From assembly GCA_965277625.1 (NCBI GenBank), contig OZ255827.1, positions 1,608,550-1,672,549 of the forward strand: DNA of 64,000 bases. Direction: 5' to 3'. How positions within the stretch are numbered: position 1 is the first letter of the stretch; every line of letters starts with the position of its first letter. The translations under genes and the position numbers were made by a program. The notes beneath the pieces were generated by a model. That model was not told the DNA's origin. It searched no databases and saw nothing but the letters and a program-made list of their open reading frames with translations. Source of the DNA: Gammaproteobacteria bacterium. Its GTDB lineage: Bacteria; Pseudomonadota; Gammaproteobacteria; CAKMZV01. Of the stretch, positions 5,733-62,088 are shown piece after piece.

Positions 5733-5849
5733 GCCTGGCAATGACCTACTCTCACATGGGAACTCCCACACTACCATCGGCGCTAAGACGTTTCACTTCT
5801 GAGTTCGGTATGGAGTCAGGTGTTTCAATCTTGCTATGGTCACCAGGCA
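5733..5849 (-). rRNA. rrf: 5S ribosomal RNA
   Basis: Reverse complement matches bacterial 5S rRNA end to end (TGCCTGGTGACCATAGC...GAACTCAGAAGTGAAACG...CCCATGTGAGAGTAGGTCATTGCCAGGC). Confidence 0.9.
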
Positions 5850-5951: not shown

Positions 5952-8838
<2,887 letters not shown>

Positions 8839-11761: not shown

Positions 11762-11794
11762 CCATCGCTATGAGGCAACGATTGTGAGATCAAG

Positions 11795-16079: not shown

Positions 16080-16085
16080 ATCCTC

Positions 16086-17528: not shown

Positions 17529-17592
17529 AAGCTTTTATGCGCGTCCTTTCTGCTATTATACCCCTGATTGCAAAACAGACAAATCGATGCGT

Positions 17593-18885
17593 TCACACGG
17601 CTTCCATGGTCGCTAATTCGCCCATGATATAGACCGATTGGATGGCACGATCATCTCCTAACACCATCAGTGAAAACAATATCTCGTCGATGGTTTGAGT
17701 TGTTGCCATTTTTTCACGCACCAATTCGGTAGCTGCTAAATCAAACACAATAAAATCGGCTTCCTTATTAGGTTCAAAATTGCCAATCCTATCCTCTAAT
17801 CCAATGACCTTGGCGCCAGCTAAGGTTGATAAATAATAGGCTTTGACTGGTGGCAGGTCAACATTGTTCAATTTGCTGATTTTATAGGCTTCGTGCATGG
17901 TTTGCAGCATTGAAAAATCAGTGCCGCCACCCACATCACTCGCCAAAGCGCAATCAATATGGTATGACTCTAAGGTGTCCAAATTAAACAACCCACTGCC
18001 TAAAAATAAATTGGAGGTTGGGCACAAAGCGATCTTTGACCCACTGTCGCCCATACGTTGAAGTTCAGCGGGCGTGTTATGAATACAGTGGCCAAATACG
18101 CTTTGCGCGCCGCTCAAACCGTAATGGTCATAAACGTCAAAGTAACTGCTTCGCTGAGGATAAAGTTCTTTCACCCAGGCAATCTCATCAATATTTTCAT
18201 TCATGTGCGTTTGACAACGCACACCTGCCGCTTTATATTCGTTCAAGAGTTGTGCAGATTTTTGCAATTGTTGTGCCGTTGAAGTCGGCGCAAAACGGGG
18301 CGTGACGGCATAACTTAAGCGATCTTTACCGTGCCATTTCTCTAACAGGTTTTTAGAGTCTTCATAACCCAATTCAGGGTTGTCACAAAGGGCTTCAGGG
18401 GCATTTCTATCCATCATAACCTTGCCCCCGATCATGCGTAAATTTCGGCGTTGTGCCTCTTCGAAATAGGCGTCCACCGAGTTAGGATGTGAGGTGCAAA
18501 ACGACATGGCGGTCGTGGTGCCATTGCGTACCAATTCATTAAAAAACAATTTGGCAATACGCTCTGCATAAGCTTTTTCAGCAAATTTTTGTTCTTCAAC
18601 AAAGGTGTAGATGTTGAGCCAATCTAATAATTTTTTGCCGTAAGAACCAATGATTTTATACTGTGGATAGTGCAAATGAACATCGACAAAACCAGGTGCG
18701 ATAAGATTATTATCAAAATGTTTGACGGGCAAATCCTTAGGCAGTTGATCCTTCAATTGATCAAAGCGACCCGCCTTGACGACCTTTCCTTGTGATACAA
18801 GCAATAGCCCATCATCGTAATATTCAGGATAAACGGTACCGGCTTTTTCTATACAGTGAAATATTGCTGATCGAAATGCTTGCAT
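17593..18885 (-). CDS. guaD: Guanine deaminase
   Basis: 430-aa amidohydrolase with metal-binding HxH (VDVHLHY) and the overall guanine-deaminase pattern. It is co-oriented with xdhA-xdhB and lies upstream of them. Confidence 0.8.
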   Translation of the reverse strand: MQAFRSAIFHCIEKAGTVYPEYYDDGLLLVSQGKVVKAGRFDQLKDQLPKDLPVKHFDNNLIAPGFVDVHLHYPQYKIIGSYGKKLLDWLNIYTFVEEQKFAEKAYAERIAKLFFNELVRNGTTTAMSFCTSHPNSVDAYFEEAQRRNLRMIGGKVMMDRNAPEALCDNPELGYEDSKNLLEKWHGKDRLSYAVTPRFAPTSTAQQLQKSAQLLNEYKAAGVRCQTHMNENIDEIAWVKELYPQRSSYFDVYDHYGLSGAQSVFGHCIHNTPAELQRMGDSGSKIALCPTSNLFLGSGLFNLDTLESYHIDCALASDVGGGTDFSMLQTMHEAYKISKLNNVDLPPVKAYYLSTLAGAKVIGLEDRIGNFEPNKEADFIVFDLAATELVREKMATTQTIDEILFSLMVLGDDRAIQSVYIMGELATMEAV

Positions 18886-32728: not shown

Positions 32729-33355
32729 TTGGAATATTCAGCACTTTTTTTATTCAGCATCGCATTCTTCTTTACGCCAGGCATGAACAACACCATGATC
32801 ATGGTCTCTGGCGTTAATTACGGTTATAGAAGAAGCATTCCTCATCTCCTTGGCATTGTTTTGGGTTATCCAATATTGATTATTGCTGTTGGATTTGGTC
32901 TGGGCGCCGTTTTTATAAAGTTCCCACAACTTCACCTGATTCTGAAAATATTGGGCGTCATTTACTTGAGCTATCTCGCCTATAAAATTGCCACAACACC
33001 CCTTAATCAAACGGACAGTACCATTGGTGAACCATTCAGTTTCGTAAAAATTGCAATGCTACAATGGGTCAATCCCAAAGGTTGGGTTGGAGCGACGGTT
33101 ATGACCACGACCTATGCAGTTGCCGGCACAGATTACTTTATCCACGTATTAATCATTGCCCTGACTGCAATAACAGTCGGAATATTCAGTGCCAATACCT
33201 GGCTCATTATGGGGAATGTCATCCGTATTTGGCTCACCAATCCCTTCTGGTTAAGGCTGTTTAACTACTTAATGTCCAGCATTTTGGTGATTTCAATCTT
33301 GCCAGCGATACTTGAGCTTTATAAGCAATTAACCTCAGAAGCCCCTATTTTCTAA
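32729..33355 (+). CDS. LysE/RhtB-family translocator (exporter)
   Basis: 208-aa ORF with six predicted TMS and LysE-type N-terminal FTPGMNN. Confidence 0.75.
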   Translation: MEYSALFLFSIAFFFTPGMNNTMIMVSGVNYGYRRSIPHLLGIVLGYPILIIAVGFGLGAVFIKFPQLHLILKILGVIYLSYLAYKIATTPLNQTDSTIGEPFSFVKIAMLQWVNPKGWVGATVMTTTYAVAGTDYFIHVLIIALTAITVGIFSANTWLIMGNVIRIWLTNPFWLRLFNYLMSSILVISILPAILELYKQLTSEAPIF

Positions 33356-34368
33356 CGCAATTGTTTGATTTTTTGGTACAAGGCCTGACTGACTTGTAAT
33401 CCTTGCTGTTGTGCTCGTTGGTGTTGTGATGCTTTACGACTGCCAGGTATATAACTGCCGTGCGTCTTTAAATATTTTTTGAGTTGCTGAATCCTTTGGT
33501 CATAGCCCCCTTGACTCATGGCATTGACGTCTATGGCAATGATTGTTTGTCCCAGGTTCGGCGGAGGACCTTCATCATTGAGCAATGACGAAGCTTGACT
33601 ACTCAGATTTGAATCGGTCAGTCCACTGCTTAATATTTCAACCATCAATGCCAATAAGGCCCCTTTTTGACCACCCAAAGGCTGAAGCATCCCTTTTATT
33701 GCTTCTGCAGGGTCTTGGGTGGGTTGCCCCTTAGCGTCTAATGCCCAGGTGTCGGGTATGGTTGTGCCTTCAAAATGTGCCGCAGCTATTTTCCCCCTCG
33801 CAACGGTTGATAAAGCCATGTCAATGACAATGGGGGCTTGGTCTTTGACGGGCGCGGCAAATGCAATGGGGTTGGTCCCCAACATGGGTATTTTGGCGGG
33901 TGGAATTGGCATGGCCGTGGGTGAATTGCCAAAAATCAAAGCGAGAAATCCGCTTTTAGCCAGCTTTTCACAAGGGGCAGACGCTTGTCCAAAGTGGTGC
34001 GATTTATGTATAGAGATGGCAGCAATCCCCAACTTTTCAGCCTTTTCGGTGAGTAGGTCCACAGCCAAGTCAAGGGCAGGGAAAGCAAATCCATACTGTG
34101 CGTCGATACGGTCTATGGCGGGGAGGATATTTTGAGCAAGGGGTTGGGCATGGCCATTGATTTTGCCATTGCGCACCTGAGGCACATAGGTCATCAGGCG
34201 ACTCAATCCGTGACCGTATTGGCCTTCAATTTCTGCTTTGAGCAAAGCATTCGCAACGCTCACTGCATTGGAATCGGATGTTTTGTTCGCAATCAACGTT
34301 GAATGAATCAGAGAATAAACGTCGTCAATCTTTAAACTAATGTGGGAGGAGTGTGATTTTTGCTGCAT
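33352..34368 (-). CDS. Ldh_2 (malate/L-lactate dehydrogenase 2) family oxidoreductase, ComC-like sulfolactate dehydrogenase candidate
   Basis: 338-aa ORF with Ldh_2 motifs (EGQYGHGLSRL, HHFG). It lies at the end of the hpsN-suyAB operon. Confidence 0.65.
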   Translation of the reverse strand: MQQKSHSSHISLKIDDVYSLIHSTLIANKTSDSNAVSVANALLKAEIEGQYGHGLSRLMTYVPQVRNGKINGHAQPLAQNILPAIDRIDAQYGFAFPALDLAVDLLTEKAEKLGIAAISIHKSHHFGQASAPCEKLAKSGFLALIFGNSPTAMPIPPAKIPMLGTNPIAFAAPVKDQAPIVIDMALSTVARGKIAAAHFEGTTIPDTWALDAKGQPTQDPAEAIKGMLQPLGGQKGALLALMVEILSSGLTDSNLSSQASSLLNDEGPPPNLGQTIIAIDVNAMSQGGYDQRIQQLKKYLKTHGSYIPGSRKASQHQRAQQQGLQVSQALYQKIKQLR

Positions 34369-35332
34369 CGATTTGCCCTGAATGAATGTCTTTGAACCCT
34401 TGCTGACCTTCAGCCAAGGGTCGTTCTTGTATCCATTGATAGTCGCTTATAGCATGATGGGTCAGTAAATCAAGCGCTTCTCTCATTTCCAACATGGTAT
34501 AGGTGTAAACGCCAGCAAAAGTAATTTCTGCTAAGGTTAGCCGACGGGCATCAAATGTCCCCTCACCTTGTTGCAAACCAATATGGATCACACACCCCCC
34601 AGCATGAACACATTGCATGGCACTGGTTCGTGTAGCATGGCTTCCAACAGCATCGAAGACCTGATGGTAGGTATTGGCTTCTAATGTATCCTTCAGAGGG
34701 TTTAACGCTGTGCAATTGACTGAAGCTTGAGCCATCTTTAACCGTTGTTCACTGGTTTCGGAAATGGTGATGTCCTTGACCCCAAAATGTTGTAGGATTA
34801 AAGCGGTGATCAACCCAATGGCGCCCGCTCCAATGACCAAACATTTTTGATCTTCCAAAGCGCACAAATTCGGTAATTTTTTGGCCAATTTAACTGCATG
34901 TAAACAGACAGCTGTTGGCTCGCACAAAGAAGCGATGGTATAAGAGACCGCTTCTGCAAAAGGAATCACACACTTAGCTGGAATGGTTAGATATTGAGCA
35001 AAGCTCCCAGGTCGAGTCATGCCAATCATGGTTCGATTGCAACAAAGGTTATCGCGCCCACTCGTACAAAAAACACAGTGCCCACAAGTAATGAGCGGAT
35101 TAACCGTCACTTTTTTCCCTTTATGGGCACCTTCAATCACCCGCCCTGCCATTTCGTGACCCAATATTAATGGCGGATTTCGGCGCGAGTCATGACCGTG
35201 CCAAGCGTGCATGTCTGAACCACAAATGCCTGCTGCTTTGACTTCAATCAAAGATTCCCCTGCTTGCAAAGTGGGGGTTGGAACGTCTTGAAAAGTGGTT
35301 TGGTGCGGGGCTGTATAGACCAACGCTTTCAT
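34337..35332 (-). CDS. Zn-dependent medium-chain alcohol dehydrogenase (HpsP-like DHPS 2-dehydrogenase candidate)
   Basis: 331-aa ORF with a GHE catalytic zinc site, structural zinc cysteines (CGHCVFCTSG) and a GAGAIG NAD fold. Confidence 0.7.
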   Translation of the reverse strand: MKALVYTAPHQTTFQDVPTPTLQAGESLIEVKAAGICGSDMHAWHGHDSRRNPPLILGHEMAGRVIEGAHKGKKVTVNPLITCGHCVFCTSGRDNLCCNRTMIGMTRPGSFAQYLTIPAKCVIPFAEAVSYTIASLCEPTAVCLHAVKLAKKLPNLCALEDQKCLVIGAGAIGLITALILQHFGVKDITISETSEQRLKMAQASVNCTALNPLKDTLEANTYHQVFDAVGSHATRTSAMQCVHAGGCVIHIGLQQGEGTFDARRLTLAEITFAGVYTYTMLEMREALDLLTHHAISDYQWIQERPLAEGQQGFKDIHSGQIDAAKITLLPH

Positions 35333-36102
35333 AATGCTGAGAACCCACCATCGATAAAAATGGTTTGTCCAGTAATATAATCACTGGCATGTGAGGCTAA
35401 GAACAGACTAATACCTTCTAAGTCTGCCATCTCACCATTGCGTTTCATTGCAGTTTTATCTGAATTTTGGGACGCCCATTTTGGGTCATTAAAAACTGGT
35501 GCAGTCAGCTCTGTTGGAAAAAATCCTGGCGCAATGGCATTTGCACAAATGCCTGAAGCTGACCACGCTTGAGCCATGGCCCGAGTCAGTTGAACCACGC
35601 CACCTTTAGACGTACCATAAGGAATGCTGTTGGCAAATGCCCGCTGAGATTGCAAAGATGCAATGTTGATGATTTTTCCCCAGCCTTTTTTTTGCATGGC
35701 GGGCACGATCGATTGCGCTAAAAAGAAAGGGATTTTCAAATTTATATTTAGGGTTTGATCCCACGATTTTGGACTGATTTCAGCTGAGGATTCACGCAAA
35801 TTTATACCAGCCACATTGGCCAATATATCAACTTGTGTTAATTGATGTGTTTGAACAAAATCAGCCCATGACTGAACTTGGCACAAGTCAGCAACTATTT
35901 TACGCGGTGCGGGTGCCGATTCAAATTGGGCAATATCGTCAATGGTTTGCTGTAAGGATTCGTCCCGACGTCCTAATAAAATGACGTGGGAACCCGCTTT
36001 TGCCAATGTCATCGACATTTGCCGCCCTATGCCTGAACCCGCACCTGTGACTAAACTGGTGGTGCCTTTTAGAGAGAATAAAGCACTGATCCCACTATCC
36101 AT
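35329..36102 (-). CDS. SDR-family oxidoreductase (HpsO-like DHPS 2-dehydrogenase candidate)
   Basis: 257-aa ORF with TGAGSGIG, NVAG and YGTSK motifs. Its stop overlaps the Zn-ADH start (ATGA). Confidence 0.7.
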   Translation of the reverse strand: MDSGISALFSLKGTTSLVTGAGSGIGRQMSMTLAKAGSHVILLGRRDESLQQTIDDIAQFESAPAPRKIVADLCQVQSWADFVQTHQLTQVDILANVAGINLRESSAEISPKSWDQTLNINLKIPFFLAQSIVPAMQKKGWGKIINIASLQSQRAFANSIPYGTSKGGVVQLTRAMAQAWSASGICANAIAPGFFPTELTAPVFNDPKWASQNSDKTAMKRNGEMADLEGISLFLASHASDYITGQTIFIDGGFSAL

Positions 36103-36106
36103 AGGC

Positions 36107-37408
36107 TTAATATTGTAATCTATAGGTTTGGTCGGGGAAATATTTGGCTAAACGAACATCAGCCGTCCGAGCATGAGCTTCCATACCTTCTAAGCGTGAA
36201 ATTCTGGCACAGCTCGTTGCAATTTCTGGCACGGCTTTTTTGTCCAATTTTTGATAGGTTAAAACTTTGACAAATTTTGCCACCGAAAGCCCGCCAGTAT
36301 ATCGCGCAGCGCCTTTGGTTGGCAATACGTGATTGGGTCCAGAACATTTATCACCAAAAGCAACCGTCGTTTCTTCGCCTAAAAACAAAGAACCATAGTT
36401 ATTCAGATTTTCTAACCACCAATCCAGGTTTTCAGTTTGTACTTGCAAGTGTTCTGCGGCATACTGATCACTGACTTGAACCATTTCATCAGCCGTTGAA
36501 CATAGAACCACTTCACCGTAATTTTCCCAAGACACCGAAGCTGTTTTGGCCGTATCTTCGGGCAATTTTTGGATGATTTCTGGAACCAACTCAATGACTT
36601 TTTTAGCCAGAGCTTCATCATCAGTGATGAGCCATGCAGGAGAATCTAAACCATGCTCGGCTTGTCCAACCAAATCTGTTGCAACGATGTTTGCATCGGC
36701 AGATTTGTCTGCAATGATGGCAATTTCAGTCGGTCCAGCAAAAATATCAATCCCAGTTTTACCAAATAACAAGCGTTTGGCTTCAGCCACAAATCGATTG
36801 CCAGGACCAACTAGAATGTTCACCGGTTTAACATCAAACAAACCATAGGCCATAGCCGCAATGCCTTGAACCCCACCAAGTGCCAGAATTTTATCAGCGC
36901 CACAATAGCTCATGGTATATAAAATATAAGGATTGATGCCTTGCTCGGGTCTGGGCGGTGAGACAGCCACAACCTGTTCAACGCCAGCGACCTTAGCCGT
37001 CGCAATGCTCATAATGGCCGAAGCAATATGCGCATAACGCCCGCCTGGCACATAACAACCTGCACTCTGCATAGGACGTACAATTTGTCCAGCAATCACG
37101 CCAGGTTTGATGACTTCCTCAAAGGTGTGGATGCTGTTCAATTGCGCTTGGGCAAAAGTTGTGACATTATCAAATGCATAAGCTATGTCGTCTTTGATCG
37201 CCTGCGGAATATTCTTGTTGTTCTCAGCAATTTCTTCCTCTGTCACAACAATATTGCCCGTCCAGTTATCCAAAGTTTTTGCATATTGAATGGCCGCTGG
37301 TTCGCGATTGGTCTCAATATCGCTGAGCATTTGTTTGACGATGTCCTGGACTTCATTTTCACCCGAAGTCGGTTGTTTAATGGATTTTTTCAAATAGCTT
37401 ATAGACAC
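36107..37408 (-). CDS. hpsN: Histidinol-dehydrogenase-family DHPS 3-dehydrogenase (sulfopropanediol 3-dehydrogenase)
   Basis: 433-aa HisD-fold protein (GPGN-FV-EAK, QAEH). It lies between suyB and the DHPS 2-dehydrogenase candidates, away from any his operon. Confidence 0.7.
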   Translation of the reverse strand: MSISYLKKSIKQPTSGENEVQDIVKQMLSDIETNREPAAIQYAKTLDNWTGNIVVTEEEIAENNKNIPQAIKDDIAYAFDNVTTFAQAQLNSIHTFEEVIKPGVIAGQIVRPMQSAGCYVPGGRYAHIASAIMSIATAKVAGVEQVVAVSPPRPEQGINPYILYTMSYCGADKILALGGVQGIAAMAYGLFDVKPVNILVGPGNRFVAEAKRLLFGKTGIDIFAGPTEIAIIADKSADANIVATDLVGQAEHGLDSPAWLITDDEALAKKVIELVPEIIQKLPEDTAKTASVSWENYGEVVLCSTADEMVQVSDQYAAEHLQVQTENLDWWLENLNNYGSLFLGEETTVAFGDKCSGPNHVLPTKGAARYTGGLSVAKFVKVLTYQKLDKKAVPEIATSCARISRLEGMEAHARTADVRLAKYFPDQTYRLQY

Positions 37409-38574
37409 TACGCGCTCCTATAGAGTTTGGTCATAACGAATTCTTTATGTCCTAAGGCTTCTGCCGCAGTATATCGACCATTGGCCGTTTGAACCATATT
37501 TTCAATTAGCGCATCACCCGCTTCTGAAATGGTCATTTCCCGACGCAGCACACCCGAAACATCGACGTCAACGTGTTCTGACATGGTGCGAACGGTTCGT
37601 GGATTTCCAGTGATTTTAATCACTGGAACAATGGGATTGCCAATAACATTGCCTTGACCCGTTGGGAAAGTATGAATGACGTAACCCGCGGCAGCCATCA
37701 ATGTCACACACTCAGCCGCCGCTGAAGAGGTGTCCATAAAGTATAAACCTTGACCTTTGCTTGGGGCTTCGGCGGGTTCTAATACATCGATGTATTTAAC
37801 ATTTCGTCCTATTTTTTCTAAATTGCCCAGCGCTTTTTCCTCAATGGTGGTCAATCCCCCTTCAATATTGCCTTTGGTGGGTTGAGAATCGGAAAGATCA
37901 GAGGTTTTAAAAGGTTCAATCACATCATCCTGGTACGCCTGCCAAGTCTTCATGAACTTTTCACCCGTTGCTGTGTCATGTGCCCGTTTCACACACAAAT
38001 GTTCAGCCCCAGTCAATTCTGAGGTCTCACCAAAGACGCCGTAAAGCCCCTGAGGAATGAGTTTGTCATACATGTTGCCAACGGCTGGACAAGAAGCCAG
38101 ACCCGTTGTGGTATCAGATTCTCCACACTTAGTCGATACCCACAATTCAGATATATCACACGGCTCACGCAACAAAGCTGTTGCATGATGAACGTACTCT
38201 TTTGCCACCTTAGAAGCCGCTGCAACTGTCGCTATGTCGCCGTTCTGTTCAATGTGAAAACCAGTAACGGGTTTACCCGTTTTAGCGATGCCATCCACAA
38301 TGATTTTAGTCCAATGTGGTTCAATGCCAATCACCACCACCGCAGCAATATTGGGATTGGATCCAGTCCCAATGAGGGTGCGAAAATGCAATTCTAAATC
38401 TTCACCAAACTGCAATCGCCCATAAGCGTGTGGTAATGCAACGGTGCCCTTAATATTATTTGCAACCGCTTCACAGGCGGCGTTTGAAATATCATCCACG
38501 GGCAATATAGCGACGTAATTACGTACGCCAACCCGATTATTCTCTCTACGATAACCCCAAATACTTTGTGTCAT
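37408..38574 (-). CDS. suyB: (2R)-sulfolactate sulfo-lyase large subunit (UxaA/GarD C-terminal-domain family)
   Basis: 388-aa ORF in the altronate-dehydratase C-terminal family, immediately after a SAF-domain small subunit. This arrangement is typical of SuyAB. Confidence 0.75.
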
Positions 38575-38583
38575 GATTGTCTC

Positions 38584-38871
38584 CTACCAACGTTTGGTTT
38601 TTAAATTGTGTGTGTGAACGTGATCGCCTTTTTTAATCTTGGCAATCACCTTACCGATGTCTTCACCGTATTTTATAACTGTATCGCCCACTTCAAAATC
38701 AGTCAAAGCAATTTTGTGACCGATTGGAACATCGTGATTAGATAACATATTCAAGTCTGAGTTGTCCTCAGTAATCACACACAAGAGCTGGGATTGGGCT
38801 TTTAGTCCCTCCACCACAACAACGCCGACGTTGTCTCCTTTATCATGGATTAATAATTGTGGAATTTTCAT
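38584..38871 (-). CDS. suyA: (2R)-sulfolactate sulfo-lyase small subunit (SAF domain)
   Basis: SAF-domain ORF. Start placed at MKIPQLLIHDKGDNVGV (38871), which is preceded by AAGGAT, rather than at the upstream Met at 38901. Confidence 0.7.
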   Translation of the reverse strand: MKIPQLLIHDKGDNVGVVVVEGLKAQSQLLCVITEDNSDLNMLSNHDVPIGHKIALTDFEVGDTVIKYGEDIGKVIAKIKKGDHVHTHNLKTKRW

Positions 38872-39046
38872 GATTAATATCCTTATCGTTAAGTTAATCA
38901 ATGATGCATTTTGTGCATCAACCTATATAAACAGTTGTTGAATTGTCATCAACCCACTGTTGTTGAAAATGGCTCATACTTAATCATCATCAAGCATGAG
39001 CGTAAAACAGCAATCCGAGGAGGACTGCCGCCTCAACCTTTGACGG

Positions 39047-40363
39047 TTAAGAGTTTAAATAATTTGGTAGCCAGAGGGCAATTTGAGGGAAGGTAATGAT
39101 CAGTGCCAATCCTATCACTTGGATAACCATGAACTGCATCATGCCTTTGTAAATATCTTTTAGATCCCACTCGGGTACAACGCCCTTCAAAAAGTAGGCG
39201 GACAGCGCCACCGGCGGTGACAGCCAAGCTGTTTGCAAATTAACGGCGACCAATATGCCAAACCACGTTAAATTAAATCCAAGTTGTTCAACCAAAGGCA
39301 ACAATATTGGTACGATGATGAGTACGATTGGTACCCATTCTAAGGGCCAACCCAATAAGAATATGACCGCCATAATCATCACTAAGACCAGTATGGGTGG
39401 CATGTCAAGATGCAGCAACATCTCTGTCAACATGGTGGGTGTGCCTAAACGTGAAAATACTGCACCAAAAAAGTTTGAAGCCGCAACAAGCACCAAAATC
39501 AGAGCTGAAATCTCTAAGGTTTTAACCAAGGCTTCGTGAAAATTGGACCAAGAAAATTTTCTGTAGGCAAAGGTCAATAAAACCGCACCGAATGCGCCCA
39601 TCGCCGCACCTTCTGTGGGTGTGGCCAAACCAAATAAAATACTGCCTAAGGCAAAGCCGACCAACGCACTTGGTGGAACCAATCCGAGAATAAAATCTTT
39701 AAAGACTTCCATATTCGATTGGGCTCTAAACTCTTCGCTCAACTTAGGTCCTAATGCGGGATTTAGATAACAACGAATCAAGGCGTATGCCGTATATAGA
39801 AAAGCCAGCATGGCGCCAGGAATGATCGCCGCGGCAAATAAATCTGTGACAGGCACTTCTAAAATGGGACCCATAACGACTAACATAATGCTGGGTGGAA
39901 TGAGTATGCCTAAGGTGCCCCCTGCGGTAATCGTCCCAGCAGATAACTGAACATCATAATTTGATTTATTCATTGTGCGAGCGGCCATAATACCCAAAAT
40001 GGTGACCGATGCGCCAACAATACCCGTTGCTGCCGCAAATATTGTAGAAACGAATAGCACAGCAACGAACAAGGCGCCATTGACTCGAGATAACATGCGC
40101 TGGATGGAGTCAAACAATTGTTCCATCAGCCCCGCTTTTTCCATCAGAATGCCCATGAAAATGAACAAGGGCACCGCAGACAAGGTCTGCTCTAACATGA
40201 CATTATTAAATTGGAATGTCATCAAATAGAATACAAGATCACCAAAACCTAAATAGCCAAATACCAGTCCCAAAAAGATCAGTGTAAAAGATATGGGAAA
40301 ACCAATAAAGATGGCAAACAACATGATGCCAATGAGAATAACACCGAGAATTTCAGGAGACAT
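39047..40363 (-). CDS. TRAP transporter large permease (DctM family)
   Basis: 438-aa protein with a typical DctM 12-TMS layout. Confidence 0.9.
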   Translation of the reverse strand: MSPEILGVILIGIMLFAIFIGFPISFTLIFLGLVFGYLGFGDLVFYLMTFQFNNVMLEQTLSAVPLFIFMGILMEKAGLMEQLFDSIQRMLSRVNGALFVAVLFVSTIFAAATGIVGASVTILGIMAARTMNKSNYDVQLSAGTITAGGTLGILIPPSIMLVVMGPILEVPVTDLFAAAIIPGAMLAFLYTAYALIRCYLNPALGPKLSEEFRAQSNMEVFKDFILGLVPPSALVGFALGSILFGLATPTEGAAMGAFGAVLLTFAYRKFSWSNFHEALVKTLEISALILVLVAASNFFGAVFSRLGTPTMLTEMLLHLDMPPILVLVMIMAVIFLLGWPLEWVPIVLIIVPILLPLVEQLGFNLTWFGILVAVNLQTAWLSPPVALSAYFLKGVVPEWDLKDIYKGMMQFMVIQVIGLALIITFPQIALWLPNYLNS

Positions 40364-40418
40364 TTTTTAAATTCCTAATAGGTTGGGTTCATAAAGTGTA
40401 TTCATACGATGCGTTGAC

Positions 40419-41024
40419 TTAAGGCCAACGATTGTGCTTGATCGTGTAAAAACATTGAAGCAATTCGGACACGCCTTGTATCAATAAAAATGCCGTACCA
40501 ATGGGTATGGCTGATTTAATGGGTCCCATGTGCGGCATCCAAGCGGTGTCCATGCCTAATTCACCTCTGTCCCAAGCGTCGTAGGAAAAATCATATCCCA
40601 CTAATAAAAAGATAAACAACCCAGGGAAATAAAAGAGCAGATACAACAATGTATCAATGCTGGCTTGGACTTTGGGTTGCCAATTACGGTAAATAAAATC
40701 GGCCCTAATGTGCACCCCTCGCATCAGTGCATAACCGGCACCAAGCATAAACAGCGCCCCATAAAACATTCGACTGATGTCATAGGCCCAAGCAGTGGGT
40801 GCCAAGAAAAACTTACGGGCAATAATTTCGTAAGTCATGGCAAGCATAATCGGGATGGTTAACCAACAAACGATGTTGCCAACCCAATAACTAAACCGGT
40901 TAATGCCAACGATGGTTTTACTCATCCACGTCAGCATATCTTCCGGCATTTCAAAAGCAGATTTCCGTTCGGCAATCAGCTCGTCGGTTATATCTAACTT
41001 TTCAATATCTACTTGATCTGGCAT
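40419..41024 (-). CDS. TRAP transporter small permease (DctQ family)
   Basis: 201-aa protein with four TMS, located between the DctP and DctM genes. Confidence 0.85.
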   Translation of the reverse strand: MPDQVDIEKLDITDELIAERKSAFEMPEDMLTWMSKTIVGINRFSYWVGNIVCWLTIPIMLAMTYEIIARKFFLAPTAWAYDISRMFYGALFMLGAGYALMRGVHIRADFIYRNWQPKVQASIDTLLYLLFYFPGLFIFLLVGYDFSYDAWDRGELGMDTAWMPHMGPIKSAIPIGTAFLLIQGVSELLQCFYTIKHNRWP

Positions 41025-41093
41025 TTGATTATCTAAAAATTGGTTAACTAAAAAACAAAGCCCTGCTTGAAAATCAAGCAGGGCTTTAAAAGG

Positions 41094-42197
41094 TTACTTA
41101 TTGCGTGCTTTAATTTCGTCAGCGTACGCTTGTCCGAGTTTCGCATTTGACGTTTGTGAACCTGCCCAATAAGGTACAGCGATGTCAGCAAACGCTTTTT
41201 GAGAATCCCATACTTTCTTAAAGAAAGCATTTTCTTTAGCATTCTTGGCTAAAGAAGCTTTGGCGGCTGCCATGTACTCAGGGAAGTAATCGGATGGTGT
41301 ATCATGTAGTTGAACGCCATGATTCTCAACCAAATCTTTTAGAGCTTTACCATTTTCAAAAATGCGATAAGCCAATGCACGCATCAAAGAAGCATCCGCA
41401 GCAACTTCCATTGCGCGTTGTTGATGCTTGGTTAGGCTACGCCATACTTTACCATTGATGTACATATCAGCATTGACGACCACTTGGTGTAAACCTTGAA
41501 GATAGTAGTGTTTCAAAACTTTTTGGAAACCAAACACACTGTCAGGTTTTGGACAACACCATTCAGCAGCGTCGATCGTACCTTTTTGTAGTGCGGGAAG
41601 AATGTCACCACCACCCATAGCAACAGAAGCAATGCCAATGTCTTTATAAGTTTGACCTGGAATGCCTGGAGGTGTACGGAAGCGATATTTACGGAAATCT
41701 TCCATGCTGTTAATTGGCTCTTTAAACCAACCAAGTGCTTCAGGACCAACAGGTTGAAGCATCAGACCTTTGATGTCCATCTTCATTTCTTTCCAAAGAT
41801 CAACATAAAGCTCTTTACCGCCACCAAACATGTACCAAGAGATGAAGGCAATGTTATCAATCCCAACACCTGCACCAGCTACTGGTGAACCAAATAAGGC
41901 CGCTGCAGGATGGTAACCTGACCAGTAATGCGTCCAAGCAAAACCACCATCTACCAAACCTTTATTAACAGCTTCCAGGGTTTCTTTCACGCCAACGACA
42001 GCGCCAGCAGGCAAGATTTCAATCTTTACACTGCCATTAGTGAGTGCTGAGACATTATCCGCAAAATCTTTTAACATGACGACTTCGTCAGCTTTTGTGG
42101 GTAATACCGATTGCACCTTAATAGTGACGTTCTTTGCTTGTGCGGTAATGGCAATAGCAGAGAAACAAATGAGCATCATTCGAACAATAATTTTCAT
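41094..42197 (-). CDS. TRAP transporter substrate-binding protein (DctP family; HpsK-like)
   Basis: 367-aa protein with a signal peptide and the DctP-family fold. First gene of the TRAP operon, divergent from the IclR regulator. Confidence 0.9.
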   Translation of the reverse strand: MKIIVRMMLICFSAIAITAQAKNVTIKVQSVLPTKADEVVMLKDFADNVSALTNGSVKIEILPAGAVVGVKETLEAVNKGLVDGGFAWTHYWSGYHPAAALFGSPVAGAGVGIDNIAFISWYMFGGGKELYVDLWKEMKMDIKGLMLQPVGPEALGWFKEPINSMEDFRKYRFRTPPGIPGQTYKDIGIASVAMGGGDILPALQKGTIDAAEWCCPKPDSVFGFQKVLKHYYLQGLHQVVVNADMYINGKVWRSLTKHQQRAMEVAADASLMRALAYRIFENGKALKDLVENHGVQLHDTPSDYFPEYMAAAKASLAKNAKENAFFKKVWDSQKAFADIAVPYWAGSQTSNAKLGQAYADEIKARNK

Positions 42198-42384
42198 AAT
42201 ATATCCTTTTTCGATCAGTTCTTGAAAACATAGTGAACACCTAATTGTATTGCCTCCAAAGAGCCATCAATTATGTAGTCACTGTTAAATCTGAAATACT
42301 GGCGTGACAAAATATCACTCAGCAAACATTTTTCAACTCTATCACAGCAATAATTCATGTGTCAATAAAAACCAATGCAATTTA

Positions 42385-42416
42385 TAAAAAATGAGACTTG
42401 GCGTCTCATTTTTTGC
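42385..42416. promoter_or_regulatory. Perfect 12-bp inverted repeat (AAAAAATGAGAC-N5-GTCTCATTTTTT) in the hpsK/hpsR divergent region
   Basis: Directly visible in the sequence. It is either the operator for the adjacent IclR regulator or a bidirectional terminator-like hairpin. Confidence 0.45.
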
Positions 42417-42474
42417 ATTTTTTAATAAAATAATTGATAATAAAAGGTCTGAACTGTTCGATAAAGAGGCCAAG

Positions 42475-43254
42475 ATGAATGATAAAACCCCCGTTATCCT
42501 GCGCGGATTAGTCGTGCTTGAAACCATGGCGCATTTTAAAAGACCAGCATCGGCGGCTGAAATTATTGAGAAAACGCAACTCCCCAAACCAACCATCCAT
42601 CGAATTTTGATTCAATTAGAATCAGCTGGCTATATTTACCGGCACGCATTAACGCGTACATACGCCCTCAGCCACAAACTCGTGCATTTCGCTTACGATA
42701 TATCAAACCATGAAGTTTATAAAGGCGCGGGGCATAATATATTAAAACAATTGTCCATAGAAACCAACGAAACTTGTAACTGTACAATATTTAATGGCAG
42801 GAGCATTACTTACTATGACCGTGTCGAAGCAAATTGGCCATTACGATTACAGCTACCCATTGGCTCGGAATTGCCCATTCATTGCACAGCAAGTGGCAAA
42901 TTATTTCTGGCATACCTTCCCAAAAAAGCACGCCTTCATTTACTCAACTCTTTGGATTTAAAACCACGAACGGCCGCCTCATACACAGATGCCACAAGGC
43001 TGTACAATCACTTGCGAACCGTTCGTTCACAAGGATACAGCCTAGACAATGAAGAATTTTATGAAGGCACCGTTGCCATTGCTGTACCCGTATTTCGCAT
43101 GCATAACAACGTCAGAACCATGCTTTTTACGGTCGCCATTCAAGCGCCAAATTCGCGTAAAACCATTCAAGAATTGATGGATTATTTGGAGCCCCTCAAA
43201 GCGGCTGCTAAAAAAATTGAGCACATCTATGAAGACTTAGACAATGACAATTAA
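42475..43254 (+). CDS. IclR-family transcriptional regulator (HpsR-like)
   Basis: N-terminal wHTH (LRGLVVLETMAHF) and a C-terminal IclR effector domain. Start moved to the Met preceded by AAAGAGG. Confidence 0.85.
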   Translation: MNDKTPVILRGLVVLETMAHFKRPASAAEIIEKTQLPKPTIHRILIQLESAGYIYRHALTRTYALSHKLVHFAYDISNHEVYKGAGHNILKQLSIETNETCNCTIFNGRSITYYDRVEANWPLRLQLPIGSELPIHCTASGKLFLAYLPKKARLHLLNSLDLKPRTAASYTDATRLYNHLRTVRSQGYSLDNEEFYEGTVAIAVPVFRMHNNVRTMLFTVAIQAPNSRKTIQELMDYLEPLKAAAKKIEHIYEDLDNDN

Positions 43255-46628: not shown

Positions 46629-49412
46629 TCAGGCTTTGCCATGACATTTTTTGTATTTTTTACCCGAGCCACAAGGGCAAGGTTCGTTCCGCCCAACCTT
46701 CCGCCCTTCACGCTGATAAGGGCTTTGGACAGGTACTGGGGCTTGATTTGAAGCCGCAGGTGATTGAAAGCTGCTACTTGGCGCAGGTTTTGGCCGACTC
46801 ATTTCTTCAGGTGCGGTGAAATTCTTAATCTTAGAATGGCCCAAGTTTACATCGTCTGCTTGACGACGTTTCTCGTCTATGGCCTCAACATCGGCCTCAT
46901 CTTGTAGCTGCACAAAGCATAATACTTTGGTCACATCATGGCGAACATTGTCAAGCAGCTCTTCAAACATTTCAAAAGCTTCTTTTTTATATTCTTGCAG
47001 CGGATTCCTTTGGGCATAGCCGCGTAAATGAATGCCTTGACGCAAGTAATCTAAGCCTGCCAAATGTTCTTTCCAAAGACTGTCCAATACCTGCAATAGC
47101 ACGGCTTTTTCAAAATGACGAATGACGTTTTCGCCCACCTTGTCAGATTTTTGTTTATATACTTGCTCTATGGCCGATAGAATATTTTCCTTAAGACCTG
47201 CTTCAGCCAGAAGATCATCTTCATCTAACCAAGTTTGTAGGGGTAAGCGAATATTGTATTCTTCTTTGAGCGCCTCCTCCAATGATGAAATGTCCCAAAG
47301 TTCAGAAATACTGCCAGGCGGGATGTAGGTGGCAACAGTGGCATGTACATCCTCTTCACGTAATCGCGCAACATAATCTCCCCAATCATCAAATTCCATG
47401 ATGTCATTGCGCTGTTGGTAAATCACTTTTCTTTGATCATTCACCACATTGTCATACTCTAACAGCTGCTTTCTAATCTCAAAGTTTCGACCTTCTACTT
47501 TCTTTTGAGCGTTGGCAATGGCTTTGGTCACCCAATTGTGTTCAATGGCTTCTCCTTGATCCAATCCCAATTTTTGCATCATCCCGCGCATTTTGTCCGA
47601 GGCAAATATGCGCATCAGATCGTCTTCCAATGAAAGATAAAAAATACTGCTGCCTGGATCACCTTGACGACCGGCACGACCTCTTAATTGGTTATCCACC
47701 CGTCTGGACTCATGGCGTTCGGTGCCGATGACGTGCAGACCGCCTAAAGCAATAACCTTATCGTGATTGACCTGCCATTCTTGCCGCATCCGCTCCATTT
47801 CTTGTTCAGATATGCCCTCAATCTGGCTGATTTCAAATTCAACATTGCCACCCAATACAATGTCTGTTCCGCGACCGGCCATATTTGTTGCAATGGTCAC
47901 CGCCCCCAATTGACCCGCTTGGGCTATGATGGTGGCTTCACGTTCGTTTTGTTTGGCATTCAACACAGCGTGTTTTAACTTGGCTTTGTTCAACGCTTCC
48001 GACAGGCGTTCAGAGCTGTCAATGGAGGCTGTACCAACCAAAATGGGCTGTTCTGTTTCGTGGATTTTTTTAATGTCATTGACCAAGGCATCAAATTTTT
48101 CTGCCTCACTCAGATAGACCACATCAATGAAATCTTTTCTCTTAACAGGTACATTCGGTGGGATAACCACAACATTAAGGCTGTAGATTTGCTGAAGCTC
48201 AATGGCTTCTGTATCCGCCGTACCAGTCATTCCTGATAATTTACCGTAGAGCCTAAAATAGTTTTGAAATGTAATCGATGCCAAGGTTTGGTTTTCATTC
48301 TGAATGGGCACCTTTTCCTTTGCTTCGATCGCCTGATGCAAACCATCTGACCAACGTCTGCCCTGCATCTTACGACCAGTAAATTCATCAATAATCACAA
48401 TTTCAGAGTTTTCAATAATGTAATCGGTGTTCTTTTCGTACAAGGTATGCGCCCTGATCGAGGCGGTGATGTTTTGCATCAAATTGATGTTACGCGCATC
48501 ATACAAATTGGCATCTTTGGCTAATATGCCTTTGTTATAGAGAAACTTCTCAACCCGCTCATGACCAGCATCGGTCAATGTCACTGAACGATTTTTCTCA
48601 TCTAAAATATAATCGCCTGGCTTATAGTCTTCACTCGGAATGCCCTCTTTATTGATTTCACCAATTTGTTTGACCAAACTTTTGGGGATGCCGTTCAATT
48701 TACCATAAATTTCTACATCGTCTTCAGATTGCCCTGAAATGATTAACGGCGTTCTCGCTTCATCGATCAAAATGGAATCCACTTCATCGACTATGGCAAA
48801 TGCGTGCCCTCTTTGCATCCGATCATCCGCCGAAAATGCCATGTTATCGCGCAAATAATCGAAACCGAATTCATTGTTGGTGCCGTAGGTGATATCCGCA
48901 TTGTATTGACGGTACTTGTTTTTCCACAATTGTCCGCTCAGAATGACTCCGACGGTTAATCCCAAAAACAAATAGACCTGACCCATCCATTCCGAGTCTC
49001 TTTTGGCCAAATAATCATTGACTGTGACCACATGAACGCCATCACCCTTTAAGGCATTCAGATAGGCCGCTAAGGTGGCAACCAATGTTTTACCTTCACC
49101 TGTTCCCATTTCAGCTATCCTGCCATCGTGCAAGACCATACCCCCAATCAACTGCACATCAAAATGACGCATGCCAAGCACCCTTCGGCTCGCTTCACGA
49201 CAAACGGCAAAGGCTTCTGGTAGCAAACTGTCTAAGGATTCTCCTGATTCTAATCGTTCCTTAAAATGCGGCGTTTTGTCTTGTAATTGTGTATCACTCA
49301 AATCCTTCAGCCCATCCTCTAACGAGTTGATTGCTTGGATACGTTTTTGATATTTTTTTATGGTGCGGCTATTGCTTGTTCCAAAAATGGATTGAAGGGC
49401 GCTGTTTATCAT
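46629..49412 (-). CDS. secA: Preprotein translocase ATPase SecA
   Basis: 927-aa protein with DEAD motor motifs, a preprotein cross-linking domain and a C-terminal zinc finger ([14 protein letters not shown]). Confidence 0.97.
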
Positions 49413-49524
49413 GTAACTAAAAATTTAGGGGACGAGTTATAAAAATGAATTCAAATATTGAATTGAGGTAGTAAAATGGTATATGGATGTCTATTTTAAC
49501 ATTTTACAAAGTGAGAGTACTATC

Positions 49525-50535
49525 ATGCGTTTTATAAATATTTTAATTTGCTTATTTGCATTAGCATTATCAATCAACATCAGCTCAGCTAACGCTAAGC
49601 CCAAGCCAGGCAGTTATATTTTGGCAACAGCCAGTGCTGGCGGAACCTACTACCCTGTGGGTGTTGCTTTGGCAACCTTAACCAAAGTAAAAATACAACC
49701 CAAGTTTAAGGTGAGCATTTCGGCCATCAATTCAGCTGGTTCGGGCGAAAACGTTAAATTATTACGCGAAGATGAAGCCCAATTTGCCATTTTACAGGGG
49801 TTATACGGATCCTATGCATGGTCTGGAACAGGTCCCATTAAGCAAAAGCAATCACAATTGCGCTCGGTTTCCATGTTGTGGCAGAACGTAGAGCAGATCA
49901 TCATCAGCTCTGAATACGCCAAATCGGGTACGGTATCTGACCTCAATAGCATTCCCAATAGTGCCCACTTGGCATTGGGGAAAAAGAATTCAGGCACTAT
50001 CGGTTCCAATCGCGAAATATTTGCCAATCTGGGTATCAACATTGACCAATACAAATTGGTTCATGCAGGTTATGGGCCTTCGGCAACAGCACTTCAAGAT
50101 GGTCGTGTGGTGGGCATCAACACCCCTGCAGGTGTTCCCACAGGTGCGATAACAAAATTGCTTGCATCAGTTTCGGATAAAGTCACTTTACTCGACATGT
50201 CCGATGCTCAAGCTAAGAAAGCAGACGGTGGTCGCAACCTATGGACACGCTATGTCATTCCAGCAAACACCTATCCCAATCAGCCAAAGGCATGGAATAC
50301 CATCGCTCAACCGAACTTTCTTGCCACAAACCAAGACGTTGATGAAGAATTTGTTTATCTTTTGACTAAAACCATGTATGAAAATCTGCCCTTCCTCAAT
50401 GCCATCCACAAAGCCACAAAAGCCATGCATTTGGAAAAAGCCATTGCCGGTTTACCTGTGCCTTTGCATAAAGGGGCTGCGCGATTCTATAAAGAAAAAG
50501 GTATAAAAATACCAGCGCATTTATTGGTTGATTAA
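49525..50535 (+). CDS. TAXI-family TRAP transporter solute receptor
   Basis: Signal peptide followed by ATASAGGTYYPVGVALA, typical of the TAXI/immunogenic-protein family. Start moved to the internal Met (MRFINIL). Confidence 0.85.
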   Translation: MRFINILICLFALALSINISSANAKPKPGSYILATASAGGTYYPVGVALATLTKVKIQPKFKVSISAINSAGSGENVKLLREDEAQFAILQGLYGSYAWSGTGPIKQKQSQLRSVSMLWQNVEQIIISSEYAKSGTVSDLNSIPNSAHLALGKKNSGTIGSNREIFANLGINIDQYKLVHAGYGPSATALQDGRVVGINTPAGVPTGAITKLLASVSDKVTLLDMSDAQAKKADGGRNLWTRYVIPANTYPNQPKAWNTIAQPNFLATNQDVDEEFVYLLTKTMYENLPFLNAIHKATKAMHLEKAIAGLPVPLHKGAARFYKEKGIKIPAHLLVD

Positions 50536-50586
50536 GGATTTCAGTCAGTTTTAACAGATACTACTCTATGATTAAGAAAACCGATC

Positions 50587-50926
50587 ATGACCCAATCGTC
50601 TCATTGGGATCGCATGCCCAACAGCATTGCTGAAGAGATCGATAAAAATCGTCAAGATCGGTTTTTCTTTATCTACCTAAACAGCCTTACCTTCATACCT
50701 TCGTCGATCGATGGTCTGATTAACATTATCATTTTCTGTCCTGCAGAAAACCGATCATGACTCAAATATCTCCTTGGGATCGTATTCCCAACAGCATTGC
50801 TAAAGAGATCGATAAAAATCGTCAAGATCGGTTTTTCTTTATCTATCTAAACAGCCTTACCGTCATACCTTCGTCGATCGATGGCCTGATTAACATTATC
50901 ATTTCCTGTCCTGCAGAAAACCGATC
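50587..50926 (+). repeat. Two extra tandem 170-bp copies of the 5' end of the downstream TRAP permease gene, each a 56-codon ORF ending in ATGA
   Basis: Direct comparison of units 50587-50756 and 50757-50926 with the gene start at 50927. The first 85 nt or so are near-identical across all three. The two upstream copies match each other in the rest of the unit, where the real gene is more diverged. Confidence 0.85.
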
Positions 50927-61241: not shown

Positions 61242-61262
61242 TCATTAAATGGGAGTCATTGA

Positions 61263-61718: not shown

Positions 61719-61736
61719 TTCGATCAAAACTAATTA

Positions 61737-62057: not shown

Positions 62058-62088
62058 TTGCTTACATGCGCCCACACCTGAGAAACCA

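Follow-up and report, generated by a model that had tools for sequence, protein, structure and literature searches.

2,3-Dihydroxypropane-1-sulfonate (DHPS) ranks among the main forms in which carbon and sulfur are exchanged between phytoplankton and bacteria, and its known degraders are mostly Roseobacters and SAR11. Does the locus at positions 33352-43254 of a 64,000-nucleotide stretch from an uncultured gammaproteobacterium (GenBank assembly GCA_965277625.1, contig OZ255827.1, positions 1,608,550 to 1,672,549; hereafter the window) encode the complete degradation of this compound, as proposed in a preliminary description made from the sequence? Considering family membership, active-site conservation and conserved synteny, it is very probable that the locus is an intact DHPS catabolic cluster, in which uptake by a SAR11-type TRAP (tripartite ATP-independent periplasmic) transporter would be combined with the dehydrogenase HpsN and the sulfo-lyase SuyAB, along with HpsO- and HpsP-type dehydrogenases and a ComC-like enzyme. 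From the initial proposal of a complete DHPS and sulfolactate desulfonation locus, the uptake, HpsN and SuyAB route is upheld, whereas the HpsKLM label given to the transporter, the racemisation of sulfolactate and the disposal of the released sulfite are not.

The ten open reading frames (ORFs) originally listed, all intact and full-length, with nine on the reverse strand and one divergent regulator gene on the forward strand, were confirmed together with their coordinates by Pfam and NCBIfam assignment (Table 1), and the guanine plus cytosine (GC) content of the locus, 0.44-0.46, is the same as in the remainder of the window. Loci from other genomes and contigs are designated below by the letter L and a number. 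The same gene string is present with 97-100% protein identity in L004, the 2.06-Mb chromosome of a metagenome-assembled genome; the gene order is repeated in two more distant relatives, L002 and L015, and a Rhodobacteraceae plasmid (L023) also has the gene set, ordered differently. Because of this recurrence in four loci, the arrangement of the genes cannot be ascribed to chance.

Enzymes of the desulfonation route

The HisD-family protein aligns without any gap with HpsN from Cupriavidus pinatubonensis (CpHpsN), the two sequences being 59% identical. Against solved structures, it scores 563 bits with CpHpsN (PDB 8v35) and 489 bits with Ruegeria HpsN (RpHpsN; 8wwe), versus at most 251 bits with histidinol dehydrogenases. 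In the published numbering, Leu45, Asp46, His126, Phe205, Glu318, His319, Asp352, Lys353 and His359 are all kept, and a threonine stands in place of Ser226. Among these positions, His126 recognises the sulfonate and sets HpsN apart from HisD, Glu318, His319 and Asp352 are the catalytic residues, and Asp46 is responsible for the preference for NAD+ (PMC11382572); the Zn residues are kept as well. The protein thus groups with characterised HpsN and not with HisD, the latter being the placement that the preliminary description had itself named as contrary to its proposal.

A more mundane reading would see in the locus nothing but ordinary genes lying side by side, namely those of a histidinol dehydrogenase, an altronate or galactarate dehydratase, gluconate and threonine dehydrogenases and a C4-dicarboxylate TRAP transporter. 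Current annotation resources lean that way, as TIGR00069 (hisD) matches with 451 bits, which is over its cut-off, the top NCBIfam names are galactarate dehydratase, gluconate 5-dehydrogenase and threonine dehydrogenase, and RefSeq labels the orthologues 'hisD' and 'UxaA family hydrolase'. Nevertheless, solved HpsN gives a score more than double that of solved HisD, and the protein has the HpsN-specific His126. All NCBIfam matches to sugar-acid and threonine dehydrogenase families remain far under their cut-offs, the SuyB clade is cleanly apart from other UxaA proteins, and the gene set shares synteny with hps and suy clusters that have been studied experimentally. The comparisons of structure scores, of NCBIfam cut-offs and of the SuyB clade refute this reading, which is considered extremely improbable.

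The short-chain dehydrogenase encoded next to HpsN obtains 246 bits with RpHpsO (8wwf), 246 bits with 9pvq and 248 bits with 6le3, versus some 150-160 bits with ordinary gluconate 5-dehydrogenases; the 6le3 entry, while named gluconate 5-dehydrogenase, scores like an HpsO and also exhibits the Ser-x-Gln motif. Residues Ser149, Gln151, Tyr162 and Lys166 of this protein correspond to Ser145, Gln147, Tyr158 and Lys162 of RpHpsO, where Ser145, Tyr158 and Lys162 form the catalytic triad and Gln147 touches the C2 hydroxyl of (R)-DHPS (PMC11131964). It is 49% identical to the product of the Cupriavidus gene annotated hpsO. As for the Zn-dependent dehydrogenase, it reaches 280 bits with the Dinoroseobacter HpsP structure (DsHpsP; 8wwd), the runner-up among PDB matches being at 120 bits, and it is 42% identical to Cupriavidus HpsP; its His59, Glu60 and Glu138 correspond to His59, Glu60 and Glu139 of DsHpsP (residues from PMC11131964). 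The two enzymes thus retain the residues that serve catalysis and enantiomer selection in RpHpsO and DsHpsP, in line with the pair of dehydrogenases first described.

Regarding the function of this pair, the preliminary description had the two enzymes interconvert the S and R forms of DHPS through 2-oxo-3-hydroxypropanesulfonate. The enzymes are indeed present, but this scheme is just one of two conflicting published models. In the C2 racemase model, HpsO and HpsP act via 2-oxo-3-hydroxypropanesulfonate (Mayer et al., 2010), a view retained more recently (PMC13335735). According to Liu et al. (2024), both HpsO and HpsP oxidise DHPS at C3 to sulfolactaldehyde, which requires a sulfolactaldehyde dehydrogenase and, in the S branch, also SlcC and then ComC.

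For the sulfo-lyase, the small ORF matches positions 7-79 of galactarate dehydratase (GarD), that is the N-terminal part of this enzyme, and can therefore be regarded as a split-off small subunit, the large ORF matching positions 109-491. This split UxaA/GarD architecture, in which the small subunit has about 95 aa and the large one about 390 aa, is as expected for EC 4.4.1.24. SuyB is 67% identical to its counterpart in C. pinatubonensis and 78-79% to those of Paracoccus, with relatives at 86-87% identity in other contigs; the corresponding values for SuyA are 47% for Cupriavidus, 62-63% for Paracoccus and 66% for strain SC52. Proteins 82-84% identical to SuyB bear the JGI label '(2R)-sulfolactate sulfo-lyase subunit beta'. 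In a plasmid collection, the SuyB group shows 59-80% identity, against at most 41% for all other UxaA-family proteins, and among solved structures the sole relative is a galactarate dehydratase, at 119 bits. With such an identity gap, the SAF/UxaA pair groups with SuyAB and not with galactarate or altronate dehydratases, which bears out the initial assignment.

The last gene of the enzyme string encodes a protein with a Pfam Ldh_2 score of 305 bits. Over its full length, it is 47% identical to the Ldh of the Paracoccus aestuarii suyAB-TTT-slcC-comC-suyZ cluster (L107), and in L015, L017 and L023 the gene immediately following suyAB or hps genes encodes a homologue, with 45-53% identity. An Ldh_2 gene thus stands next to suyAB in four independent arrangements, namely the operon of a relative (L015), the Rubricella GntR-suyAB-Ldh string (L017), hpsKLM-hpsNOP-suyAB-Ldh-suyZ (L023) and suyAB-TTT-slcC-Ldh-suyZ (L107); further Ldh_2 homologues sit in unrelated gene contexts. 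Many homologues with 47-53% identity are labelled '(2R)-3-sulfolactate dehydrogenase (NADP+)' at JGI. Both the Ldh_2 fold and the identity to suyAB-adjacent Ldh_2 genes agree with the designation ComC-like, but the claim that this enzyme racemises sulfolactate is not supported, as the established sulfolactate racemase is the pair formed by SlcC and ComC (PMC12421959, PMC11131964) and no SlcC homologue was found in the 64-kb window (tblastn with the protein at the SlcC position of P. aestuarii, E 1e-3). Judging from its sequence, the Ldh_2 enzyme would only be able to link sulfopyruvate and (R)-sulfolactate.

Transporter and regulator

The transporter was initially equated with HpsKLM. The DHPS ligands of RpHpsK are Tyr75, Ser125, Asn128, Arg184, Arg207, Asp272 and Gln274, in cluster 2 of the sequence similarity network (SSN) of PMC13335735, and the comparison with RpHpsK used plasmid-borne orthologues as proxies, checked by the presence of these seven residues at the exact published positions. 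The binding protein is 22-23% identical to these orthologues, below the identity of more than about 40% within the cluster, and keeps none of the seven ligand residues (0/7), with E, G, K, Y, T, M and A in their place. Similarly, DctM is 27% identical to HpsM and DctQ 24% identical to HpsL from Ruegeria-type orthologues. The transporter consequently belongs to a different TRAP family and the HpsKLM label has to be abandoned.

A scan of metagenome contigs with the binding protein of the window, unbiased as to neighbouring genes, yielded at least 553 relatives, the best 80 of which show 71-83% identity (L024-L103). Identity with the protein of the window amounts to 72-77% for TRAP binding proteins from Candidatus Pelagibacter and Pelagibacteraceae, and to 72-79% for relatives in Pelagibacter, Thalassospiraceae, Hoeflea and other Gammaproteobacteria; the low-GC members of the family are Candidatus Pelagibacter proteins. 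In loci with the same binding-protein family, DctM is 59-82% identical. A tblastn search of the plasmids with the binding protein returned matches of at most 36% identity, with uninformative neighbourhoods. In Candidatus Pelagibacter ubique, SAR11_0864 binds isethionate and both DHPS enantiomers in assays with added Ca2+, the text consulted naming no other TRAP binding protein (PMC11485210). Barber et al. (2026) placed SAR11_0864 in SSN cluster 3, which is tied to hpsNOP loci in Alpha-, Beta- and Gammaproteobacteria and is the cluster most divergent from that of RpHpsK (PMC13335735). From the Pelagibacter relatives and the association with hpsNOP, we infer that the transporter of the window belongs to this SAR11_0864 (cluster 3) family.

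Neighbouring genes were counted over 25 loci centred on the binding protein and having enough flank. A GMC flavoprotein (choline-dehydrogenase-like) is found in 20 of the 25, an IclR regulator in 16 and hpsN, hpsO or hpsP in 12, with GMC and hps genes together in 9 and neither in 2. The GMC flavoprotein, present in 44 of the 80 metagenome loci, is the commonest neighbour of the family. In two relatives, the GMC gene even lies inside the hps/suy operon (L002, 14229-15821; L015, 7422-9014), and the L015 locus is devoid of the short-chain dehydrogenase HpsO. In a Pelagibacter island (L108, 1-11106; L111), the order is suyB-suyA, xsc, a DAO-family oxidase, a short-chain dehydrogenase, TerC, GMC, TRAP, an NCS1 transporter and a Zn-dependent alcohol dehydrogenase, which brings this binding-protein family into the company of three distinct desulfonation routes.

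Such neighbourhoods give some substance to another explanation, namely that isethionate is the main substrate of the transporter, an IseKLM-like importer kept together with its IclR regulator, DHPS entering otherwise, or the locus mainly processing sulfolactate formed internally or imported by other means. Besides the prevalence of the GMC flavoprotein, often accompanied by IclR, several loci exhibit the order GMC-P-Q-M-IclR, which in terms of gene order alone is that of iseJ-K-L-M-R in Ruegeria pomeroyi. In L108, the xsc gene, which scores 934 bits, is about 5.7 kb from the GMC gene, and SAR11_0864 was first detected through its binding of isethionate (PMC11485210). On the other hand, neither a GMC/IseJ homologue nor xsc was detected in the window by homology search and Pfam survey, which would leave isethionate without any catabolic partner here, SAR11_0864 binds both DHPS enantiomers as well, and seven or more independent loci have the TRAP transporter directly ahead of genes for DHPS enzymes. 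This explanation is hence judged unlikely. Elsewhere, no xsc was found near the GMC-TRAP modules of L040 and L088. The high-GC GMC-TRAP-IclR loci were also considered as Roseobacter ise clusters, an idea that was rejected, their binding proteins being from Rhodospirillales, Thalassospiraceae and Hoeflea; an equation of the binding protein with IseK is unproven.

The regulator encoded opposite the TRAP genes is indeed a divergent IclR protein, as first described, with the Pfam domains HTH_IclR and IclR_C. It is 31-39% identical to the IclR proteins accompanying the same TRAP family, and IclR genes whose products are 40-47% identical to it adjoin hpsN in L005 and L009. The canonical HpsR is instead of the LacI type, as in Cupriavidus, Paracoccus, Leisingera, strain SC52 and R. 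pomeroyi. The type of regulator thus fits the transporter module, the expression of which it would presumably control.

Proposed pathway

The locus can be viewed as two modules. The first would comprise IclR and dctPQM, from the TRAP family of SAR11 sulfonate islands; the transporter would bind its substrate in the periplasm and most likely import DHPS, and probably isethionate as well, with the hairpin located after dctP probably raising the amount of binding protein over that of the permeases. The second module would consist of suyA-suyB-hpsN-hpsO-hpsP-comC-like. HpsN, with Zn2+ and NAD+, is predicted to carry out the four-electron oxidation of (R)-DHPS to (R)-sulfolactate, which SuyAB would split into pyruvate and sulfite. 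HpsO, acting on (R)-DHPS, and HpsP, acting on (S)-DHPS, would make the S enantiomer usable, be it through racemisation via the 2-oxo compound or through sulfolactaldehyde, while the ComC-like Ldh_2 enzyme may interconvert sulfopyruvate and (R)-sulfolactate, so that other sources of sulfopyruvate could reach SuyAB.

Several observations weigh against this reading of the locus as a DHPS cluster. As regards the transporter, the evidence for DHPS as the ligand of the binding protein consists of family membership and gene neighbourhood, and isethionate could be the main ligand because 20 of the 25 family loci adjoin a GMC flavoprotein rather than hps genes. As regards HpsN, homologues can prefer L-cysteinolate, as does that of Bilophila, which favours it over (R)-DHPS. 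The Ldh_2 protein scores 189 bits with NF040650 for a cut-off of 500, a weak negative since this model is named L-sulfolactate dehydrogenase, and its best PDB match is DpkA, a piperideine-2-carboxylate reductase, at 183 bits, ComC from Methanocaldococcus jannaschii being at 112 bits. Besides SlcC, sulfolactaldehyde dehydrogenase is missing from the 64-kb window, and because both are absent the S-enantiomer branch is incomplete there. Finally, the window does not account for the removal of sulfite: a homology search revealed no SuyZ homologue in its 64 kb, and no known sulfite exporter or dehydrogenase was found there, TauE and SoeABC not being covered by a search with reference sequences. With both an exporter and a dehydrogenase of known type absent, the disposal of sulfite is incomplete within these limits.

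Two suggestions had been made as to the fate of sulfite. The flanking LysE, EamA (DMT) and MFS genes, proposed to export sulfite or sulfonate, are conserved only within the species and not beside the locus in relatives, and they are not of known sulfite exporter types, which leaves little of this suggestion. The sox genes, proposed as a route for oxidising the released sulfite, are present, with soxX, soxY, soxZ and soxA at 60867-62937 on the forward strand and with SoxX and SoxA passing the NCBIfam equivalog cut-offs; still, they lie 17.6 kb away with no evidence for a linkage to the locus, and neither soxB nor soxCD is found within the window. A part of these genes in the oxidation of sulfite would thus be conjectural.

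According to another explanation, cysteinolate or cysteate would be additional or even the main substrates of the locus: L-cysteinolate would be oxidised by HpsN to L-cysteate, a housekeeping aminotransferase would convert it to sulfopyruvate, the ComC-like enzyme would reduce the latter to (R)-sulfolactate, and SuyAB would complete the route. The substrate preference of the Bilophila homologue points in this direction, as does the binding of L-cysteate by CpHpsN in the sulfolactate site (PMC11382572). A ComC-like gene without SlcC would also find its explanation in this way. Rein and co-workers reportedly described in 2005, in Paracoccus pantotrophus NKNCYSA, a conversion of cysteate to sulfopyruvate and then to sulfolactate ahead of SuyAB. 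However, HpsO and HpsP with their DHPS-specific residues would be left without any role, cuyA, cuyB, cuyC and an aminotransferase gene are all absent from the locus, and HpsN is closest to the DHPS-specific CpHpsN and RpHpsN, all of which renders this explanation very unlikely. In the search for CuyA, the sole PALP-family gene of the window (59486-60580, beside sox) was considered and rejected, as it encodes a threonine synthase.

Returning to DHPS as the substrate, the ComC-like gene has an obvious role under the sulfolactaldehyde model of the Liu type but would be an accessory under the C2 racemase model. Since HpsN homologues oxidise L-cysteinolate, a third possibility is that the ComC-like enzyme channels sulfopyruvate derived from cysteate or cysteinolate. 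Taking this further, it can be speculated, albeit with considerable doubt, that the lineage joined a SAR11-type TRAP transporter with dual isethionate/DHPS capacity and its IclR regulator to suyAB-hpsNOP, the lone ComC-like enzyme being a sulfopyruvate funnel and not half of a racemase. If so, a single SuyAB would desulfonate several algal C3 sulfonates, with (S)-DHPS entering via sulfolactaldehyde and (S)-sulfolactate, and cysteinolate and cysteate via HpsN and a transaminase.

Organisation of the locus

Coordinates are gathered in Table 1. Starts were taken from gene callers run on a near-identical ENA metagenome contig (ERZ26858989:contig_4), of which the window is a strain variant. Together with an alignment to Paracoccus SuyA, they indicate that the ATG at 38871 is most likely the start of SuyA; similarly, in combination with alignments of orthologues, the ATG at 42475 is most likely that of IclR.

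Table 1. Genes and candidate control elements of the DHPS locus (positions in the window).
Feature	Position	Strand	Assignment or basis
Ldh_2-family dehydrogenase, ComC-like; candidate (R)-sulfolactate/sulfopyruvate oxidoreductase	33352..34368	-	Final gene of the enzyme string
hpsP, Zn-dependent medium-chain dehydrogenase, (S)-DHPS predicted	34337..35332	-	Pfam ADH_N + ADH_zinc_N; PDB 8wwd
hpsO, short-chain dehydrogenase, (R)-DHPS predicted	35329..36102	-	Pfam SDR; PDB 8wwf
hpsN, DHPS-3-dehydrogenase (sulfopropanediol 3-dehydrogenase), GTG start	36107..37408	-	Pfam Histidinol_dh; PDB 8v35
suyB, (2R)-sulfolactate sulfo-lyase large subunit	37408..38574	-	Pfam GD_AH_second + GD_AH_C
suyA, sulfolactate sulfo-lyase small subunit, 95 aa	38584..38871	-	Mechanical ORF reaches 38901
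dctM-suyA spacer, 175 nt, with palindrome of 7-bp arms at 38902-38920	38872..39046	-	Palindrome scan; possible internal promoter/operator
TRAP large permease, DctM type	39047..40363	-	Pfam DctM 253 bits; NCBIfam dctM 279 bits, over cut-off
TRAP small permease, DctQ type	40419..41024	-	Pfam DctQ 76 bits
Hairpin, 15-bp stem and T-run, directly 3' of the dctP stop codon	41056..41088	-	Scan for terminator-like sites; strongest site of the region
TRAP solute-binding protein (dctP), signal peptide	41094..42197	-	Pfam DctP
Sigma-70-like promoter match 5' of dctP, TTGACA-18-TAGAGT with TG	42336..42365	-	Best consensus match there
Perfect palindrome, 12-bp arms (AAAAAATGAGAC ttggc GTCTCATTTTTT); candidate operator	42386..42414	.	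Divergent dctP-iclR control region
IclR-family regulator, divergent from the TRAP genes, 259 aa	42475..43254	+	Pfam HTH_IclR + IclR_C; mechanical ORF from 42391

The preliminary description had reported overlaps of 1-4 nt with ATGA junctions as indicating a single operon. The enzyme genes are tightly packed as claimed, but ATGA occurs at one junction only, the 4-nt overlap of hpsO and hpsP. SuyB and hpsN overlap by 1 nt (TAGTG), hpsP and the Ldh_2 gene by 32 nt, and the gaps are 4 nt between hpsN and hpsO and 9 nt between suyA and suyB, so that translational packing extends over all six enzyme genes. The gaps among the TRAP genes are of 55-69 nt, versus 175 nt between dctM and suyA, and dctPQM may be transcribed as a unit of its own or as an attenuated portion of a common unit.

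As for control elements, the hairpin downstream of dctP is likely, from its structure and position, to be a partial terminator or a stabiliser giving an excess of binding protein. The palindrome at 42386-42414 lies between the promoter-like site of dctP and the likely start of iclR, where it might serve as an operator or as a bidirectional element resembling a terminator; it bears no relation to the palindrome at 38902-38920, and no operator motif common to the dctM-suyA and dctP-iclR intergenic regions was found beyond 8-mers. Sigma-70-like sites are not more numerous in the region than in the shuffled expectation.

Other genes of the window and host

Several other features of the window relate to organosulfur compounds. 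A GcvT-family protein encoded at 9234-10391 on the reverse strand scores 370 bits with the NCBIfam dimethylsulfoniopropionate (DMSP) demethylase, for a cut-off of 410 and well over its scores with glycine-cleavage T-protein models, and is a DmdA-like candidate. A 122-aa cupin (13373-13741, forward strand), preceded by genes for a class II aldolase and an FGGY kinase (10583-13348), matches Pfam DMSP_lyase with 31.6 bits for a cut-off of 27 and has no NCBIfam match. The DmdA-like gene and the cupin fit the ecology first proposed, that of an organism feeding on organosulfur compounds from phytoplankton. Further, xanthine-dehydrogenase-like molybdopterin and FAD/2Fe-2S subunits are encoded beside an amidohydrolase at 13773-18885 on the reverse strand, which suggests a purine catabolism cluster, and another TRAP system, of the TAXI type and unrelated to the first, composed of an NMT1_3 binding protein and a fused permease, is located at 49483-53020 on the forward strand. 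The genes of the 23S rRNA (5968-8832) and 5S rRNA (5733-5847) are on the reverse strand with no adjoining 16S rRNA gene; the rRNA operon is unlinked, since the GcvT-family gene, and not 16S, starts about 400 bp upstream of 23S.

The SecA protein of the window (46629-49412) is 99% identical within the species, 74% and 72% identical to those of two relatives, and at most 63% identical to everything else; with just two relatives above 63% identity, the host lineage is sparsely sampled. The locus therein displays a complete HpsN-SuyAB route in a deep-branching and uncultured gammaproteobacterial lineage with a small genome of about 2.1 Mb. With DmdA-like and Sox genes in the same lineage, the list of likely organosulfur consumers is thereby extended. 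A lesson for annotation also emerges: since two or more TRAP lineages, unrelated to each other, serve hps operons, gene context does not suffice to transfer the label hpsKLM; the TRAP lineage used here is abundant in marine metagenomes, where it is usually paired with a GMC flavoprotein.

Comparison with known systems

The pathway itself is well known, and the window provides a new example with a different transporter and regulator rather than a new system. The HpsN-SuyAB pathway was already reported across Proteobacteria, including Gammaproteobacteria, by Burchill et al., and several TRAP clusters tied to hpsNOP were already reported by Barber et al. (PMC13335735). The cluster hpsR-hpsN-hpsO-hpsU-hpsP-suyAB from C. 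pinatubonensis (Mayer et al., 2010; PMC11382572) encodes the same five enzymes (HpsN 59%, HpsO 49%, HpsP 42%, SuyB 67% and SuyA 47% identical) for what would be the same chemistry, from DHPS to (R)-sulfolactate and then to pyruvate and sulfite, and with the same HpsN active site save for Ser226Thr. There, however, import is by the MFS protein HpsU, the regulator is of the LacI type and no Ldh_2 gene is present in the cluster, in place of the TRAP, IclR and Ldh_2 genes of the window, and the order hpsN-O-U-P-suyAB differs from TRAP-suyAB-hpsN-O-P-Ldh_2.

Roseobacter-type hpsR-hpsKLM-hpsNOP loci, such as SPO0590-0598 of R. pomeroyi, associate a TRAP transporter with HpsN, HpsO and HpsP, as in the window; downstream of DHPS, R. 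pomeroyi relies on SlcD and CuyA and not on SuyAB. The closest system overall is carried by plasmid pSC52_2 of Rhodobacteraceae bacterium SC52 (L023), the order of which is LacI-hpsKLM-hpsNOP-suyAB-Ldh-suyZ and the enzyme content of which is identical to that of the window, with 57% identity for HpsN, 47% for HpsO, 40% for HpsP, 78% for SuyB, 66% for SuyA and 45% for Ldh_2. The SC52 and Roseobacter plasmids nonetheless harbour the other TRAP lineage with the RpHpsK ligand residues and a LacI regulator, and SC52 a SuyZ-type exporter, all of which the window is devoid of.

The sulfolactate clusters from Chromohalobacter salexigens and Paracoccus likewise bring SuyAB together with a ComC of the Ldh_2 family, the Ldh_2 protein and SuyB of the window being 47% and 78% identical to their P. 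aestuarii counterparts, but they also feature the SlcC and ComC racemase, a TTT sulfolactate importer and SuyZ, whereas SlcC, TTT and SuyZ are not encoded in the window. In SAR11, the hps genes are scattered with GMC adjacent, and the Pelagibacter binding proteins, 72-77% identical to that of the window, adjoin hpsN or lie in suyBA-xsc-GMC islands, in contrast with the full suyAB-hpsNOP string following the transporter, and without GMC, in the window. What is particular to the latter is thus the SAR11-type TRAP transporter with IclR, the position of suyAB ahead of hpsNOP, the lone ComC-like gene and the uncultured gammaproteobacterial host with a small genome.

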